Notes: generated by a model from the letters alone, not told the origin. A stretch of 64,000 nt of DNA from Pelagomonas calceolata (GCA_918797485.1 CAKKNE010000001.1:4402001-4466000); one strand, 5' to 3'; shown: positions 4,861 to 51,031, counted from the first letter of the stretch. Program-made: numbers and translations.

Positions 4861-6050
4861 CTAGATGCGGTAGAACGCCTCCGCCGTCCCCGCAAACACC
4901 ATAGCCTGCGCCTCCGCGTCCAAGCCGAGCGGCCCGTCGCACCAGCCCTGGAACTTTTCGTAGAGCTCCGTCATCGTCGGCTGGCACTCGTCGCAGTAGT
5001 CCGCGTTCGACGACGCCCCCGACCCGTGCCAGTTCGACGCGAACATGCAGCGCTCCGGCCCGAAGAGCGCCAGCAGCTCCTTGACGAGCCCGACCACGAT
5101 TGCCTCCTTGGCCGCGTCGTCGGTCCAGCCGGGCACGAGGAAGCCGAGCATGGACAGCTTGACGCGGACCTGGGGGAGCTTCGCGAGCTGCGTGACGCCC
5201 GCCCGCCACGCTTCAATTTTCGCGGCGTCCGCGCTGCCACCATCCAACTTCCTTACTTTCCCCGCGTGGTCGAGCACGACGGGAATGTCGGGGTGGCGCG
5301 CTAATAAAGCCGCGGCCGCCGGCAGCTGCGCCGGCGCGCACTGCAGGTCGTACCTGTGTGGAAATCAAAAGTTTACGGTGCGTTCATCGTCGCGTCGTCC
5401 TCCACGCCATCGACGCGACGCCTGCTCGATGGCGTGGTGGTGCTCGTTCCTCGCCGCTCGACCGAGCCAGGACGGCCGCGCCATCGCCGAGAAATCGCAC
5501 TGGTTGATTTCCACGCAGGGTCGTACGAGAGGCCATGTTTAGCTAATAAGGAGAAGCCGCGCTCGAAGTCCGAAGCCTCGGGCCCCCGCAAGTAGTCCTT
5601 GCCGTGGCGCGACACCTCGGGGTGCGTCCCGTTGTCTTCTCCCCACGGGCCGTCGTAATCGATGATGTAGCGCACGCCTTTCACTAAGTCTGATGTTTTC
5701 ACGAGCGCTTCGAGTTTTTGTGCAGCGTCGGGCGCCGCCAGATCTACCTTGCCCACGATGGCCTTGACCGTCGGGGCCCTTCCCTCCTTGATCAGCGACG
5801 CGACCCACGCGGCCTCGGCCACACCGTCGTCGGGCAGCGCCTCGACGTGGACGCTCTTCACAATGTTCAATTGTGATTTGTCCTTGACGTACTCCTCCGG
5901 CGGGTAGTCGGGCGCGCCCAGCTTTCTTAAAAATCCGGAGTGGCCGCCGGGGCCCGCTTCCACGGACGGCGTGTAGAAGTGGTGGTGCGGGTCCACGATT
6001 CTTTGTGGTACTTTCTTTGACATGCCGAAGCACTGGCGGATGAATTGCAT
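4861..6050 (-). CDS. Amidohydrolase_2 family (L-fuconolactonase-like) protein; exons 6050-5527 and 5353-4861
   Basis: DPHHHF metal motif, VVLDHAG, VKLS and FGPERCMFASNW. The two ORFs join in frame (GLSYDLQC) after removing GT-AG intron 5526-5354. Confidence 0.88.
5346..5526 (-). mobile_element. Introner (intron-generating MITE) with 14-bp TIR and 8-bp TSD
   Basis: TSD GGTCGTAC at 5346-5353 and 5519-5526; TIR CTGTGTGGAAATCA (5354) / TGATTTCCACGCAG (ends 5518). Confidence 0.9.
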
Positions 6051-15825: not shown

Positions 15826-17440
15826 CTACTTCTTCTTGGCCGCGGATTTCGTCGTCTTGCCCTCCTTCTCGGACTTGTCGACCGACTTGATGACGCCGAC
15901 CGCGACCGTCTGGCGCATGTCGCGCACGGCGAAGCGCCCGAGCGGCGGGTACTCGGCGAACGACTCGACGCACAGCGGCTTCGTCGGCTCGAGCGTGACC
16001 ATGCACGCGTCGCCCGTCTTCACGAACTTCGGGTTCTCCTCGAGCACCTTGCCTGATCGCCTGTCCATCTTCTGGTCGATGTTCTTGAACTTGCACGCGA
16101 CGTGGGCCGTGTGGCAATCGAGGACGGGCGAGTAGCCCGACGAGATCTGGCCGGGGTGGTTCATGACGATGACCTGGGCGAAGAAGGTGCTCGCGCCCTT
16201 GGGCGGGTCCTTCTTGGAGTCGCCGCACACGTTGCCGCGGCGGATGTCCTTGACCGACACGTTCTTCACGTTGAAGCCGACGTTGTCGCCCGGCACGGCC
16301 TCGGGGAGCGACTCGTGGTGCATCTCGACGGACTTGACCTCAGTCGTGATCTGGACGGGCGCGAAGGTGCAGACCATGCCCGGCTTGATGATGCCCGTCT
16401 CGACGCGGCCGACCGGCACCGTGCCGATACCGCCGATCTTGTAGACGTCCTGGAGCGGGAGGCGCAGCGGCTTGTCCGAGGGGCGCTTCGGCGGGTTGGC
16501 GTTGTCGAGCGCCTCGAGGAGGTAGGGGCCCTTGTACCACGGCATGTTCGTCGACTTGTCGATCATGTTGTCGCCCATCCAGCCCGAGATCGGCACGAAC
16601 GGGATCTTCATCGGCTTGTAGCCGACCTTCTTCAGGTAGGTCGACACCTCGGCCTTGATCTCCTTGTAGCGGCCCTCGCCGTACTTGACCGACACGTCGT
16701 CCATCTTGTTGCACGCCACGATCATCTGCTTCACGCCGAGCGTGAACGCCAGCAGCGCGTGCTCGCGCGTCTGGCCGTCCTTGGAGATACCGGCCTCGAA
16801 GCCGCCCACCGACGAGTCAATCACCAGAATGGCGATATCGGCCTGGGACGTGCCCGTGATCATGTTCTTGATGAAGTCGCGGTGGCCCGGCGCGTCGATG
16901 ACCGTGAAGTAGAACTTCGGCGACTCGAACTTCCAGAGCGCAATGTCAATCGTGATACCGCGCTCGCGCTCGGCCTTGAGGTTGTCAAGCACCCACGCGT
17001 ACTTGAACGAGGCCTTGCCGAGCTCGGCCGCCTCCTTCTCGAACTTCTCGATCGTCCGCTTGTCGATGCCGCCGCATTTGTAGATCAAGTGACCCGTCGT
17101 CGTCGACTTGCCGGCGTCGACGTGGCCGATCACCACGAGGTTGATGTGCGTCTTCTCCTTCACCTGCGATGCGGGCGCGCCGGTCGTACAACGCTCTTTC
17201 CTCACCATAGGGCTTCACGTCGCGCGTGTGTGTGTCCGGGCCTGCTGACAGTGCCCGCCGCGGCGACCGACGGTCGTTCGCTGCGGCTGGCCGCTCGTCG
17301 GTCCGTGCTAGTGGCCAAGCAAAAATCTCGCATCGCCGAAGCTCCGCACGTCGCCGTCGCAGCGCGCGGGCCCGCAACGCGCGCCTCGCTGGACGCGGAT
17401 CGGCTGGAGGATTCTCAAACGTAACGCGGGTGCGCACCAT
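15826..17440 (-). CDS. EF1A: Elongation factor 1-alpha, copy A; exon 1 = ATG (17440-17438), intron 17437-17164
   Basis: [37 protein letters not shown] mirrors copy B. An alternative ATG at 17208 is possible. Confidence 0.95.
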
Positions 17441-18032: not shown

Positions 18033-19644
18033 TCACTTCTTCTTAGCGGCGGACTTGGTCGTCTTGCCCTCCTTCTCGGACTTGTCGACCGACTTGATCA
18101 CGCCGACCGCGACCGTCTGGCGCATGTCGCGCACGGCGAAGCGTCCGAGCGGCGGGTACTCGGCGAACGACTCGACGCACAGCGGCTTCGTCGGCTCGAG
18201 CGTCACCATGCACGCGTCGCCCGTCTTCACGAACTTAGGGTTCTCCTCGAGCACCTTGCCCGAGCGGCGGTCCATCTTCTGGTCGATGTTCTTGAACTTG
18301 CACGCGACGTGGGCCGTGTGGCAATCGAGGACGGGCGAGTAGCCCGACGAGATCTGGCCGGGGTGGTTCATGACGATGACCTGGGCGAAGAAGGTGCTCG
18401 CGCCCTTGGGCGGGTCCTTCTTGGAGTCGCCGCACACGTTGCCGCGGCGGATGTCCTTGACCGACACGTTCTTCACGTTGAAGCCGACGTTGTCGCCCGG
18501 CACGGCCTCGGGGAGCGACTCGTGGTGCATCTCGACGGACTTGACCTCAGTCGTGATCTGGACGGGCGCGAAGGTGCAGACCATGCCCGGCTTGATGATG
18601 CCCGTCTCGACGCGGCCGACCGGCACCGTGCCGATACCGCCGATCTTGTAGACGTCCTGGAGCGGGAGGCGCAGCGGCTTGTCCGAGGGGCGCTTCGGCG
18701 GGTTGGCGTTGTCGAGCGCCTCGAGGAGGTAGGGGCCCTTGTACCACGGCATGTTCGTCGACTTGTCGATCATGTTGTCGCCCATCCAGCCCGAGATCGG
18801 CACGAACGGGATCTTCATCGGCTTGTAGCCGACCTTCTTCAGGTAGGTCGACACCTCGGCCTTGATCTCCTTGTAGCGGCCCTCGCCGTACTTGACCGAC
18901 ACGTCGTCCATCTTGTTGCACGCCACGATCATCTGCTTCACGCCGAGCGTGAACGCCAGCAGCGCGTGCTCGCGCGTCTGGCCGTCCTTGGAGATACCGG
19001 CCTCGAAGCCGCCCACCGACGAGTCAATCACCAGAATGGCGATATCGGCCTGGGACGTGCCCGTGATCATGTTCTTGATGAAGTCGCGGTGGCCCGGCGC
19101 GTCGATGACCGTGAAGTAGAACTTCGGCGACTCGAACTTCCAGAGCGCAATGTCAATCGTGATACCGCGCTCGCGCTCGGCCTTGAGGTTGTCAAGCACC
19201 CACGCGTACTTGAACGAGGCCTTGCCGAGCTCGGCCGCCTCCTTCTCGAACTTCTCGATCGTCCGCTTGTCGATGCCGCCGCATTTGTAGATCAAGTGAC
19301 CCGTCGTCGTCGACTTGCCGGCGTCGACGTGGCCGATCACCACGAGGTTGATGTGCGTCTTCTCCTTCACCTGCGATGCGGGGCGCGCTCGGTCTCGTAT
19401 AAATGCACCTCATGCGGGGTTTCAGGTGTTTGCGTGTTTGAGGGGTTGCTGCCGATGGCCGGTGCAATCGCTGCGGTTGCCACAACGTCCGCGCGGCCGC
19501 AAAAGGCGCCATCGCCGGCATGGGGGATATTTGGTGATTGCGCGCCACAGGCTTGCCGCGGTGCGTGATTGCTCGATCAGCGGCCGCGCGCAATATATAT
19601 TGGGAGCAGGTGTGCAAGCAGGATAGGTTGGAGAGACGCACCAT
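18033..19644 (-). CDS. EF1A: Elongation factor 1-alpha, copy B; exon 1 = ATG (19644-19642), intron 19641-19371
   Basis: Protein identical to copy A; ATG|GTGCGT..CGCAG|GTG AAG GAG. Confidence 0.95.
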
Positions 19645-20923: not shown

Positions 20924-22543
20924 TTGTATAAGATGTGTTTGTGGTGATAGATTGATAAGACGGCTGTTGGGCGGTAAAAAGAGCTTAAGGTCACTAGGGT
21001 TTTATGATGCGACATGCAGCCGTCTGAGTATCATTCCGTTAGCTACTGGTCCAAAGAGATCAATGGGACACTTACTGGGGGGCGAAAAAAATAATTTTTT
21101 TAATTCGCGATATTGACGGTCCCGCCATGACGGCCGCTTCGGTGGAATCCTGTCAATCCGTGGCCCCCAGGTCTCCCTGGGTGCGCTGAGGGATGGTACT
21201 AGACGTGCGCAAGCGCCTACGTCGTATGCGCGGGCGCTTCCATCGGTAGAGACATATGAGGCATTTCTCTCAGCCAGACATCGGGCCAGAGCCCAAGTCC
21301 CCCAGGTTTTCGATCCAGAGCTCTCTGGAGAGCACCAAGCGCCGCCGCATGCGCACTAGGCGACTATCCGACACCAGACCTATCTCGGAGGGAGTCCGGG
21401 AGCCGATCTGCATCCGAAAAAAGTAAATAATTTGGACCCGATGGCGCCCCGTTCCCGTCAAATACGTCAATTACCCGAGGGCCCCCAGGAATAGTAATAG
21501 CGGTCTCGTCGGACCCCATACTACCCCACCGATAGTCAACTACAAGTATATGACATCTACACGCCGAGAAGGGTACTTTGGACTGCCCACGCTCGGGACG
21601 TGAACATCTTGATCTGGACCTCGCGCAAGTCGGTCGATCATGGAACAAATGATCGTTTCATGGTCCATGGTGATGGTACACGGGCTGATGGTCGCAGGTC
21701 CAAGTAATTCGGCCCAATTAGCCAGATCGTGGGCTCGCGAGACCGACGACCCGCGCCGAGCATCTTGGGGTCTCGAGCAATGTAGGACCCACTCAGGCCG
21801 GTTAGATGGCCCGTCCCGTAACCGAAGCGCCTGAAACGCAAATTTATTTTATAACTCACCGGTCTGGGGCCTTTCCCGCCCTCCGTCTACGTACCGTCGT
21901 CCGCGGAGAACGGGCAAGTCGGTCGATTGTGAATAGAACAACGGCGTTATGGTCCATCTGGATGGTGCCGTCGCTGATACTCGCAGGTGTAGGTATCGAG
22001 CCCGCCTTTAAGTAAACGCGCGGTACCGAAGTCGTCGAATCCCGCGGCTCTAACGGGCCACCTTAAGTACCTCAGTAAGCGTTTATCCGGCCTAGATGGA
22101 CTCTACCACTAACAAACGGAAGGAAACGAACATAAACGCGAGAGTTGTCTAGTAGAATTCTTTTCCCGCCCTCCGAGCGCGGGCCGTCGACTCCGGTTCC
22201 GTCGATTATGTATGAAAACTGAGCTGGAGTTGATATAATGTACTATTTGGACGGTAGATGGCGGCGTCAATCGCTGGTGTATTTTGGCGAGCCGCAAGAC
22301 TCATCCGCGAATGTCGCTGGCGGTGCCTTCCGGGAGGCGCGAGGGTATGTTCCCGGGCCTCTACTCTGAAATATTTGGTCTCAGCGAACGACTAGGATGT
22401 ATTCTGAATTTGGGTCATTCTTTTGACGCTATCGAAGCGCATCTTTGAATTTGCTAGTGTGTCGGTTACGCTAGCTCCGAGTTTGGCACTTTGCACTGCT
22501 TCCGAAGCATAAGCGTACACCAACAAAAAACCACAAAACTATA

Positions 22544-46631: not shown

Positions 46632-47357
46632 ATGATGCTACTCAGCACGCTCAAACTGCTCGCATGCATCGCACCGCTGCACGCCCTGACGCCGCCGAAG
46701 TCGCATGCCGCGCCGACGCCGTCGGTGCGACGACGGACAGCAGCAATGCGCGTGCGCGGCGGCGACAACGCGACGGATGCGCTACGCGTCCGCGGCGGAA
46801 CCGGCAAGAAAGCCAAGAAACCGAGGAAGAGAGGGACACGTCGATGGCCTACTTACGGTAGGAGTAGTCGAGACCGGTCTCGCCGCGAGAGTCGAGTCGA
46901 GTCGAAGCCTGCGGACGCCCCAGTCGTCGAAACGCCCGTCGCAAAGGATTTCAACCAGCTCAAAGAAGTACCACAGGGTTGGATCGACCGCACCTGTGAA
47001 GAATCAAATTTCGCGGCGCTTCGAATCATGACGATGCACCCGACTCACTGGTTGATTTCCACACAGGACCGCACGATCAACTTCCTCGAGGCGCCCGTCA
47101 CGGAGCTGTTGATCGGCGCCACGGCCGTGTCGTTGAGTTTGATGGAGATCCAACGACAAATTATCGAGCTCGGCACGCGGGAAGCCGACTACTCCGTGCT
47201 GTTTCTCGCGGCGACGCGGATGCTCAAGGCATTCCTCGCTGTGTTGCGCTCGACGCGCATGGCTCTGCGCGGCTACAAGTCCTACGCGGTCATCAAGAAA
47301 GGAGAAAACGTCTACCTCAAGAAACTACCGGCGACCGACGATGACGGTGTTGTGTAA
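46632..47357 (+). CDS. Hypothetical signal-peptide/membrane protein interrupted in frame by an introner
   Basis: Signal peptide, two RVRGG motifs and C-terminal hydrophobic helices. Confidence 0.55.
   Translation: MMLLSTLKLLACIAPLHALTPPKSHAAPTPSVRRRTAAMRVRGGDNATDALRVRGGTGKKAKKPRKRGTRRWPTYGRSSRDRSRRESRVESKPADAPVVETPVAKDFNQLKEVPQGWIDRTCEESNFAALRIMTMHPTHWLISTQDRTINFLEAPVTELLIGATAVSLSLMEIQRQIIELGTREADYSVLFLAATRMLKAFLAVLRSTRMALRGYKSYAVIKKGENVYLKKLPATDDDGVV
46986..47074 (+). mobile_element. Short introner (73 bp) with 8-bp TSD
   Basis: TSD GACCGCAC at 46986-46993 and 47067-47074; ends CTGTGAAGAATCAAA / CTGGTTGATTTCCACACAG match the 5354-5518 element. Confidence 0.85.
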
Positions 47358-48696: not shown

Positions 48697-51031
48697 ATGG
48701 CGAACCCTATTGTTTGCATCAGCGTCTTAGTACGTCAAAGTGACAGCGCTCTGCGATTTTCGTGCAACCGCGGCAATCAGCGACCGAGGAAAGGCCAGGA
48801 GGCCTGCCTCGCTGATGCTCTGCGCGCGTGACGCGCGGCGGCGCCCTGCAGCAAGCGAGCAGCCACGAGTGGAGCACGCCCGTCGCCGCCGCAGCCCTGC
48901 ACGCATCCACATAAAACATGCAAAAAATCCGCCGCGACCGCCGACCGCCAAAACGCGCGCAGGTCTTCTTCGACATGTCCATCGGCGGCCAGCCGGCGGG
49001 GCGCATCGAGATGACGCTCCGCGCGGACGTCGTCCCGAAGACGGCCGAGAACTTCCGCTGCCTCTGCACGGGCGAGAAGGGTGCCGCGGCCGCGTCCCTC
49101 TTTTCTCAAACAACTCCGTGGCGCAATGGATAGCGTATCAGACTTCGAATCTGGGGGTTGCGGGTTCGAGTCCCGTCGGAGTTGTTTCGCCGATCGCGCG
49201 GCGGCCGTTCAGTATCCGTGGCCGAGTTGGTCTTTCATCTATGATGAACCATGAAGGCGTTGGATTTAAGCCCCAATCTCTTCGGAGGCGTGGGTTCGAA
49301 CCCCACCGGATGCACACATGAACGCCGTCGACGCGACACCGGACGGACTGGAAAATCTGAAGGTCGCGGGTTCGACTCCCGCATCGGTCTCTCCGCGGAT
49401 TGGACTTTGTGCAAGATAGTGTGGCCGAGTGGTTAAGGCGGTAGACTTGAAATCTACTCCCGTAAGGGTCGCAGGATCGATTCTCACAAAATCGATGCGC
49501 GTTCGAACCCTGTCACTATCGCGCACGTTGATGATGTGGCCGAGTGGTCTAAGCTCCTGTGAGCGACCAGAGGCGCTGGTTTTAGGCACCAGTCTTCGGG
49601 CGTGGGTTCGAACCCCACCATCATCACGACAAGTCCTTTCCGCACATTTGTATCCGTGGCCGAGTTGGTCTAAGGCGTTGGATTTAAGCCCCAATCTCTT
49701 CGGAGGCGTGGGTTCGAACCCCACCGGATGCATTTGGACCGATTGGCGCAACGGTAGCGCGTCAGATTCCAGTCCTGAAGGTTACGCGTTCGAATCGCGT
49801 ATCGGTCATAGAGCGCGTGTCGACGGTACGTTCCTACGCAGGCACGGGCCGCTCGGGCAAGCCGCTCTACTTCAAGGGCTCCACCTTCCACCGCGTCATC
49901 ACGGACTTCATGTGCCAGGGCGGCGACTTCACGCGCGGCAACGGTGCCGCGGCCGCGTCCTATGCATATTTGGGGGTGTAGCTCAGTGGCAGAGCGTCCG
50001 CTTTGCATGCGGAAAGCCCAGGGTTCAAACCCCTGCTCCTCCACACACACACAACTCCGTGGCGCAATGGATAGCGTATCAGACTTCGAATCTGGGGGTT
50101 GCGGGTTCGAGTCCCGTCGGAGTTGTTGCTGCTCGACGGCGCGGAGGTGGAGCCTCGCACGCCGAGACCGGGCCGGTCACGCGCGCACGCGCAGGCACGG
50201 GCGGCGAGTCCATCTACGGCGAGAAGTTCGCCGACGAGAACTTCCAGCTCCGCCACACGGGCCCCGGCGTGCTCTCGATGGCCAACGCCGGCCCGGGCAC
50301 GAACGGCTCCCAGTACCGCGGCCGCGTCCTTTCATTCAACTCCGTGGCGCAATGGATAGCGTATCAGACTTCGAATCTGGGGGTTGCGGGTTCGAGTCCC
50401 GTCGGAGTTGTTGCTCGATAGCGTGGTGCGTCTCGACGCACCACGATCTGGACGGACTGGAAATCTGAAGGTCGCGGGTTCGACTCCCGCATCGGTCTTG
50501 CTTGCGGATTGGACTACGATAGTGTGGCCGAGTGGTTAAGGCGGTAGACTTGAAATCTACTCCCGCAAGGGTCGCAGGATCGATTCTCACAAAATCGATG
50601 CGCGTTCGAACCCTGTCACTATCGCGCACAAAGTCCTTTCTGCACATTTGTATCCGTGGCCGAGTTGGTCTTTCGTCTATGACGAGCCACGAAGGCGTTG
50701 GATTTAAGCCCCAATCTCTCCGGAGGCGTGGGTTCGAACCCCACCGGATGCATTTGATACATTTGACCGATGGGCGCCACGGTGGCGCGTCAGACTCCAG
50801 TCCGATGTCAGATTCCAGTCCTCCGAGAGAGCATACAAGGGCAATGTCGACGGTACAATCACACGCAGGTTCTTCCTCTGCACGGTCAAGACCGACTGGC
50901 TCGACGGCAAGCACGTCGTCTTCGGCTCCGTGACCAAGGGCATGGACGTCGTCAAGAAGATCGAGGCCGTCGGCTCGGGGTCCGGCGCGACGGCCAAGCC
51001 GGTCGTCATCACCGACTGCGGCCAGCTCTAA
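48697..51031 (+). CDS. Cyclophilin (PPIase), 171 aa; exons 48697-48711, 48963-49080, 49842-49943, 50195-50312, 50869-51031
   Basis: Four GT-AG introns removed give [89 protein letters not shown]. Confidence 0.95.
49112..49184 (+). tRNA. tRNA-Arg(TCG), copy 1
   Basis: Acceptor AACTCCG/CGGAGTT, anticodon arm TCAGA-CTTCGAA-TCTGG, GGTTCGAGTCC. Confidence 0.93.
49212..49314 (+). tRNA. tRNA-Leu(TAA) with 20-nt D-loop intron (49234-49253)
   Basis: Identical to the intronless copy 49650-49732 once the insert is removed. Confidence 0.88.
49345..49390 (+). tRNA. Orphan 3' half of tRNA-Trp with anti-anticodon leader, copy 1
   Basis: ATCTGAAGGTCGCGGGTTCGACTCCCGCATCGGTC, preceded by GGACTGGA. Confidence 0.6.
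49415..49521 (+). tRNA. tRNA-Ser(TGA) with 26-nt T-arm intron (49476-49501)
   Basis: Acceptor GATAGTG/CACTATC-G, GTAGA-CTTGAAA-TCTAC, long variable arm; GCAGG|TTCGAAC is restored after removing the insert. Confidence 0.88.
49530..49626 (+). tRNA. tRNA-Leu(TAG) with 19-nt D-loop intron (49552-49570)
   Basis: Acceptor GATGATG/CATCATC-A, CTGGT-TTTAGGC-ACCAG; GGTCTA|AGGC is restored after removing the insert. Confidence 0.87.
49650..49732 (+). tRNA. tRNA-Leu(TAA), intronless
   Basis: Acceptor GTATCCG/CGGATGC-A, loop TTTAAGC, variable arm, GGTTCGAACCC. Confidence 0.92.
49737..49808 (+). tRNA. tRNA-Trp(CCA), contiguous, with A31-C39 mismatch
   Basis: Acceptor GACCGAT/ATCGGTC-A, D stem GCGC/GCGC, loop TTCCAGT, T stem ACGCG/CGCGT. 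Confidence 0.8.
49972..50043 (+). tRNA. tRNA-Ala(TGC)
   Basis: G3:U70 identity pair, TCCGC-TTTGCAT-GCGGA, GGTTCAAACCC. Confidence 0.92.
50053..50125 (+). tRNA. tRNA-Arg(TCG), copy 2
   Basis: Identical to 49112-49184. Confidence 0.93.
50338..50410 (+). tRNA. tRNA-Arg(TCG), copy 3
   Basis: Identical to 49112-49184. Confidence 0.93.
50454..50498 (+). tRNA. Orphan 3' half of tRNA-Trp with anti-anticodon leader, copy 2
   Basis: Same as 49345-49390 apart from one A in the leader. Confidence 0.6.
50518..50624 (+). tRNA. tRNA-Ser(TGA) with 26-nt T-arm intron (50579-50604), copy 2
   Basis: Near-identical to 49415-49521 (one variable-loop change). Confidence 0.88.
50650..50752 (+). tRNA. tRNA-Leu(TAA) with 20-nt D-loop intron (50672-50691)
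   Basis: Same body as the other Leu(TAA) copies (one variable-loop change); intron variant TTCGTCTATGACGAGCCACG. Confidence 0.87.
50765..50821 (+). pseudogene. Degenerate 5' half of tRNA-Trp with duplicated anticodon segment
   Basis: GACCGATGGGCGCCACGGTGGCGCGTCAGACTCCAGTCC, then GTCAGATTCCAGTCC again. U8, A14 and A21 are altered and no T arm follows. Confidence 0.6.

Follow-up and report, generated by a model that had tools for sequence, protein, structure and literature searches.

Clusters of tRNA genes in introns with a shared 5′ end: a cyclophilin gene of Pelagomonas calceolata as a candidate tRNA host gene

Why should three introns of one housekeeping gene begin with the same 17 nucleotides and all carry tRNA genes? 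The gene lies in a 64,000-nucleotide stretch of Pelagomonas calceolata DNA (GCA_918797485.1, CAKKNE010000001.1:4402001-4466000), referred to here as the window, which has a GC content of 63% and eukaryotic gene content. All four neighbouring proteins that were looked up have many metagenome relatives. Elsewhere in the window, two near-identical EF-1-alpha genes are seen by eye in tandem on the minus strand (15828-17165 and 18040-19370), and a low-GC stretch without obvious genes separates coding regions at 20950-22450. Two further segments, 5353-5519 and about 46995-47066, resemble what we take to be a common Pelagomonas introner family, and the first of them is insertion-like, with a short flanking duplication. 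A first-pass annotation of the three introns had proposed that one tRNA-carrying intron was copied to new positions within the gene, or that the three are homogenised by gene conversion.

The host gene encodes a cyclophilin. Excision of the four introns listed in Table 1 leaves an intact open reading frame of 171 amino acids, and all four exons tested match the cyclophilin family PF00160. Introns 3 and 4 are spliced introns: in about 6% of run X21, aligned to 50128-50515, 2289 polyA reads cross the exon 3-exon 4 junction and 996 cross the exon 4-exon 5 junction, in both cases exactly at the predicted borders. Depth in these reads is about 1500-2860 over exon, reads from paralogues included, and 14-62 over intron outside the multi-copy Arg gene, with intron retention of about 1-3% and every intronic read on the mRNA strand. 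Over the same interval the polyA reads contain no sharp RNA starts or ends and no processing ends. Intron 2 is presumably spliced in the same way. An assembly artefact is ruled out by the same architecture in independent contigs, together with an X2 contig that is identical over 50128-50364. In paralogous cyclophilins the DNA runs across the intron-3 site and the intron is absent there.

Table 1. Features of the cyclophilin locus in window coordinates
Feature	Position	Strand	Remarks
Cyclophilin host gene, 5 exons, 171 aa	48697-51031	+	spliced ORF, Pfam, polyA reads
Cyclophilin exons	48697-48711, 48963-49080, 49842-49943, 50195-50312, 50869-51031	+	
Intron 1	48712-48962	+	no tRNA, other donor, ends without predicted pairing (internal control)
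Intron 2	49081-49841	+	761 nt, phase 1; carries six tRNA genes plus an orphan 3′ half
Donor motif, copy 1	49081-49097	+	17 nt
tRNA-Arg(UCG)	49112-49184	+	intron 2
tRNA-Leu(UAA)	49212-49315	+	intron 2; predicted 20-nt BHB-type D-loop intron 49234-49253
Orphan tRNA 3′ half	49341-49390	+	intron 2; conserved leader complementary to Trp anticodon arm
tRNA-Ser(UGA)	49415-49522	+	intron 2; predicted 26-nt BHB-type T-arm intron 49476-49501
tRNA-Leu(UAG)	49530-49626	+	intron 2; predicted 19-nt BHB-type D-loop intron 49552-49570
tRNA-Leu(UAA), intronless	49650-49733	+	intron 2
tRNA-Trp(CCA)	49737-49808	+	intron 2
3′ motif of intron 2	49818-49829	+	predicted partner of donor nt 1-10
Intron 3	49944-50194	+	phase 1, 251 nt, two tRNA genes; RNA-supported splicing
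Donor motif, copy 2	49944-49960	+	17 nt
tRNA-Ala(UGC)	49972-50043	+	intron 3
tRNA-Arg(UCG)	50053-50125	+	intron 3
Intron 4	50313-50868	+	phase 2, 556 nt; RNA-supported splicing
Donor motif, copy 3	50313-50329	+	17 nt
tRNA-Arg(UCG)	50338-50410	+	intron 4
Orphan tRNA 3′ half, second copy	50450-50498	+	intron 4
tRNA-Ser(UGA)	50518-50625	+	intron 4; predicted BHB-type T-arm intron 50579-50604
tRNA-Leu(UAA)	50650-50753	+	intron 4; predicted BHB-type D-loop intron 50672-50691
Degraded Trp 5′ half	50765-50830	+	intron 4; short duplication and trailer complementary to orphan-half leader
3′ motif of intron 4	50845-50856	+	register as in intron 2

The common start of introns 2, 3 and 4, already pointed out in the first-pass annotation, is confirmed in full. 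The GC-rich and partly palindromic donor motif GTRCCGCGGCCGCGTCC occurs in three exact copies in the 64-kb window, all of them at intron starts, and no further match is found there with up to two mismatches, which removes the possibility that it is merely a generic donor context; with three mismatches there are four sites, where chance would give a mean of 2.94 at three or fewer. The 3′ motif TGTCGACGGTAC, which that annotation had placed about 12 nt before the AG of introns 2 and 4, is found in the window at 49818 and 50845 only (chance mean 0.38), ending 12 nt inside the intron 3′ end. Its leading T is not conserved in relatives, and the string GTCGACG is common, with 101 matches in the window.

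Folding of whole introns predicts that the two ends pair. For pairing between the donor and the last 45 nt, donor nucleotides 1-10 reach a probability of 0.99-1.0 in introns 2 and 4 of the window, and nucleotides 3-16 one of 0.88-1.0 in intron 4 of the related contig L054; the range is 0.4-0.99 for window intron 3, and the value for intron 1 is 0. Blocking the tRNA bodies gave the same outcome. The earlier claim of pairing in introns 2 and 4 is thus borne out by prediction but needs extending to intron 3, where the ends are also predicted to pair, although without excess over shuffled sequences (z -0.3 to -0.5). For the intron-2/4 ends, z is only -1.9 to -3.2, in sequences that are related to one another. 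An inverted repeat of at least 6 nt lies near the ends of introns 2 and 4 (with one bulge) and is weaker in intron 3. A register with a bulged A is shared by all six intron-2/4 3′ ends, three of which were paired with a 5′ end taken from another contig; this A lies 18-21 nt from the intron end (19 nt in window intron 2) and may be a branch point. The 3′ partner holds its register although its letters change among relatives. The pairing energy by itself is not exceptional, as the duplex energy of the ends is equalled by 2-48% of 1882 control 45-mers.

Introns 2, 3 and 4 carry six, two and three tRNA genes, respectively, and all 11 are in the sense orientation of the host gene. Standard gene finders miss such genes: ARAGORN detected 6 of the 11, and Rfam returned nine above threshold. 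Rfam hits to tmRNA, YrlA, mascRNA and ycf2 fall below gathering scores and overlap tRNA sequence, and were rejected. The three Arg copies are identical, as first described, but they do not all stand first in their introns, since Arg comes second, behind Ala-UGC, in intron 3. Sequence comparison of introns 2 and 4 upholds the description of the latter as a rearranged, shorter copy of the former.

Five of the 11 tRNA genes are interrupted in the D or T arm by predicted archaeal-type (bulge-helix-bulge, BHB) introns, a feature absent from the first-pass annotation. The genes concerned are both interrupted copies of Leu-UAA and the Leu-UAG gene (D loop) and both copies of Ser-UGA (T arm). An in-silico search for the motif gave exactly one solution in five of the six genes tested, the sixth being intronless. 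Each solution has a 4-bp central helix, 3-nt bulges and an intron helix of 4-6 bp, and excision restores the tRNA; the exon-side helix of only 0-1 bp marks a relaxed form of the motif. Differences between the Leu-UAA BHB introns of introns 4 and 2 preserve the helices, and by eye the BHB introns of relatives likewise have other letters and keep their helices. Leu-UAA occurs both with and without its BHB intron within the single cluster of intron 2. An A31-C39 mismatch closes the anticodon stem in the Trp gene and in the intronless Leu-UAA gene; in Trp it is also found in L054, and it is possibly tolerated or edited.

A further element is a tRNA 3′ half without an adjoining 5′ half. It is present in six copies, two in the window and one each in contigs L074, L083, L108 and L117, with compensatory changes in the T-stem, and another variant with a compensatory T-stem change appears among reads aligned over the Arg region. 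Between its leader and the Trp anticodon arm, a duplex of about -22 to -23 kcal/mol is predicted. After in-silico fusion with the Trp 5′ half of the window, all six copies are called Trp(CCA) by ARAGORN, and the inner tRNAs are bracketed by a helix whose letters differ, by eye, in L117. It is therefore possible that the orphan half belongs to a candidate nested permuted or trans-spliced tRNA. Against such a role, no BHB is found at the orphan half-Trp junction, where the helix between leader and Trp arm is almost unbroken, with bulges of 1-2 nt; the discriminator (position 73) is U, and the Trp gene of intron 2 already has its own 3′ half. A box C/D guide for Cm34 on Trp was also considered for the leader and rejected, since no box C is visible by eye and variants differ in the D+5 position.

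An exact scan of metagenomes with the donor plus two letters returned at least 120 loci. Six of the matches listed are the cyclophilin gene (L054, L074, L083, L102, L108 and L117), and these are all the recognisably algal loci among them. The other 114 listed have no BLASTN match to the locus, and 109 of these are unlike the window in composition, with scores under the 10th percentile for its own chunks, the exceptions being L052, L070, L072, L113 and L114. In viral contigs the donor matched 20 loci, none of which resembles this one, and Arg-gene patterns had no matches in viral and prokaryote contigs.

The comparison of intron positions that had been suggested is answered in part: all six contigs retain introns at every position they cover, as close relatives that were retrieved through the donor itself, so that empty alleles could not appear. 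These lineages differ from the window at 10 of 68 (L054), 4 of 19 (L108) and 6 of 19 (L102) four-fold sites, or up to 15-30%. Spacers have diverged, and intron 1 is barely alignable with the diverged contigs. The donor starts at intron nucleotide 1 in all 12 tRNA-intron 5′ ends and is exact in 11, the remaining one being short by 1 nt; eight of the nine donors from relatives were selected by the donor pattern, and the sole unselected one is the short copy. As side observations, L102 (1-342) has a longer N-terminus, lacks intron 1 and has the same intron-2 start as L074, and intron 1 of L074 (209-424) seems to begin with GC and aligns barely with that of the window.

The cargo is more fluid. 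Intron 2 of L108 opens with Ala-Arg; in L054, intron 3 holds Arg alone and intron 4 holds Ala-Arg; and intron 4 of L117 contains Arg, the orphan half, Leu-UAG and then the start of Trp. Position 69 of Arg is G in all three copies of L054 and L108 and A in all eight others. Arg copies that are uniform within lineages and different between them show concerted evolution. These comparisons show, at the level of sequence, that tRNA cassettes have been shuffled between introns and that Arg copies have been homogenised, in agreement with the gene conversion suggested at the outset.

Related introns likely occur beyond this gene. Loose read ends upstream of Arg point to about three other loci with donor variants of 1-3 nt, each beginning with GT: TG followed by GTACCGCGGCGGCGTCC (134 polyA reads, median 67 nt), ACTAC followed by GTACCGCGACCGCGTCC (DNA contig, X13) and GTCG followed by GTGGCCCGCGTCC (X2), the last ahead of an Arg-UCU variant. 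One variant is nearer to a perfect inverted repeat. The contexts are seen both among polyA reads and in the DNA of the two organisms sampled; as they are known from 30-letter ends, these loci are candidate introns, and as they were found by alignment to Arg, copies of the motif that lack tRNA would have escaped detection. The exact metagenome scan is blind to these variants. Another locus carries a tandem Arg cluster (29 reads). Related introns of one family thus likely serve the alga as carriers from which tRNAs would be cut.

A common origin of introns 2 to 4 is supported by sequence comparison, given the non-generic donor, its variants ahead of Arg elsewhere and the paralogues without intron 3. 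The proposal that one intron was copied to new sites stands to that extent, but present-day mobility is unsupported, because no target-site duplication (TSD) lies in register at any of the three introns (no 8-bp duplication had been evident before either), because positions are fixed in six of six contigs at every site within their span and because intron interiors vary in both size and contents. Near the end of exon 3 lies a word of 9 nt (about 49929-49937) that is repeated near the end of intron 3 (about 50172-50180), as a decayed duplication or by chance.

A currently or recently mobile, MITE-like introner family with tRNA cargo and terminal inverted repeats (TIRs) of about GTACCGTCGAC is accordingly an unlikely explanation. 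It fits the inverted repeats at the intron ends and the variants at other loci, including the more nearly perfect one; 956 putative TIR introners are reported for P. calceolata (PMC9481584; bioRxiv 10.1101/2021.10.25.465678), and TSDs are not universal among introners, since TIR families without them exist (bioRxiv 10.1101/2022.06.06.494994). However, apart from the missing TSD, the 3′ repeat stops 12 nt inside the intron, the interiors vary between 158 and 761 nt and in what they hold, positions are fixed across diverged lineages, and all six recognisable algal loci among the matches listed, for which an exact match was required, are this one gene.

How copies could have reached their sites is suggested by the exons. 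Site 2 and site 3 have flanks that agree at 26 of 35 positions, the top score among 36,895 in-frame pairs in the coding sequence over a span chosen after the match had been seen; with symmetric spans, 20-38 of about 36,000 pairs are as good. Site 4 has no comparable flank match. The match at sites 2 and 3 favours homology-guided copying over random insertion. In the history proposed here, an ancestral intron with inverted-repeat ends, probably introner-derived, would have taken up tRNA genes and been copied to new sites, at sites 2 and 3 most likely by homology-guided repair on near-identical exon flanks, while site 4 and the other loci would need another route, such as past transposition. Positions and donor would later have become fixed across lineages as ectopic recombination reshuffled the cassettes.

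It is also conceivable, but quite unlikely, that ancient ordinary introns gained tRNA genes and were made alike by local gene conversion alone, with ends that have no function. Conversion and shuffling are indeed seen, and the site after GNG is presumably an intron site in other cyclophilins as well. Intronic tRNA genes are common, making up 44% of 609 in C. elegans (PMC4999229). Conversion alone is nevertheless hard to reconcile with a donor that holds constant across lineages in which spacers and intron 1 have diverged, with motif variants at other loci and paralogues that have no intron at site 3, or with a 3′ partner that keeps its register while its letters change.

The remaining question is how the tRNAs are made. 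Host genes of snoRNAs yield intron-encoded RNAs derived from Pol II transcripts, and cyclophilin would be a host gene of this kind, transcribed by Pol II. The terminal helix would close a long, highly structured intron, and the tRNAs would be freed from its RNA by RNase P, RNase Z and an endonuclease that cuts BHB motifs. One point that counts against such a clamp is that a helix covering the GT would compete with U1. Release from a Pol II intron is favoured by the sense orientation of all genes, by the interrupted D and T arms, by long polyA reads that bear tRNA and by the lack of terminators: a run of four T follows the cluster in none of eight intron tails, although such runs are rare in any case (103 of 1599 background windows). 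Taken together, these features suggest that the tRNAs are probably released from a Pol II intron.

The serious rival is that the clusters are Pol III polycistrons started at the first intact tRNA, with the 17-mer as a travelling promoter element that incidentally supplies a GT donor. Every cluster 5′ end seen opens with an intronless Arg or Ala gene with intact boxes, and the donor lies 8-14 nt before the first tRNA in the window introns. In C. merolae, box-disrupted tRNA genes use upstream elements (PMC3978253), and the intronic tRNAs of C. elegans are Pol III genes (PMC4999229). Against this reading, the 17-mer starts at intron nucleotide 1 in 12 of 12 ends, stands about 45 nt from the tRNA in L054 intron 3, and has a predicted partner at the far end of the intron. 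Furthermore, the T-stretch absent after all eight clusters is present in C. merolae genes (PMC3978253), and one run of four T sits within Leu-UAG. Pol III polycistrons are for these reasons rather unlikely, serious as the alternative is. The reading preferred here, held with about even confidence, is that of an old family of tRNA-hosting introns in which predicted pairing joins a conserved 5′ end to the 3′ end and whose tRNAs would come from the intron of a Pol II host gene.

The locus is real, non-random and richer than first described. More tentatively, it is possible that many cytosolic tRNAs of this alga, including BHB-interrupted ones and perhaps a nested permuted one, come from Pol II introns of housekeeping genes, and that a transposon-derived intron family with an end-to-end clamp has been domesticated as a genome-wide tRNA cassette. 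If this is true, an introner-like element would have been domesticated for a core function, in a culturable and globally abundant alga. A search of the literature found neither tRNA-hosting introns nor BHB tRNA introns described for pelagophyte nuclei; subscription papers lay mostly outside that search, and supplementary introner consensus tables may include the family.

Among known systems, the introners of pelagophytes (PMC9481584; 10.1101/2021.10.25.465678; 10.1101/2022.06.06.494994) are alike in that several introns with common ends and a near-end inverted repeat occur in the same kind of organism. They differ from the introns reported here, which have no TSD, different interiors, fixed positions and tRNA cargo. 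The word "cargo" is absent from the text of Gozashti et al. (10.1101/2022.06.06.494994), as is "tRNA" from the main texts on P. calceolata (PMC9481584; 10.1101/2021.10.25.465678).

The intronic tRNAs of C. elegans are likewise nested in Pol II introns with a conserved host pairing (PMC4999229). In that case 56% are in the sense orientation, whereas all 11 here are sense, clustered and terminator-free, in introns with shared, conserved ends. That study calls the release of tRNA from pre-mRNA a theoretical possibility, and whether tRNAs are routinely cut from spliceosomal introns, the question left by that work (PMC4999229), is directly testable in this alga. The RNase P RNA of arthropods is a formerly Pol III RNA inside an intron of a housekeeping gene (PMC6797745), unlike the present cargo of tRNA polycistrons, for which a host-gene role is proposed. 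Human nimtRNAs are also tRNA folds within introns and may affect splicing, but they are of mitochondrial derivation and not processed as tRNAs (PMC7722341), in contrast to the conserved cytosolic tRNA genes found here.

The predicted BHB introns have their closest counterparts in C. merolae, Chondrus, prasinophytes and nucleomorphs, where non-canonical BHB introns, alongside permuted tRNAs, are known with the same D-loop and T-arm positions, 4-bp central helix and 3-nt bulges (PMC13578239, PMC4090602, PMC3978253). No stramenopile case is described in the accessible portions of these three papers. Unlike those examples, the introns described here lie in what is likely a stramenopile nuclear genome and are nested inside spliceosomal introns, which would widen the known range of archaeal-type tRNA introns to include the nucleus of a likely stramenopile.
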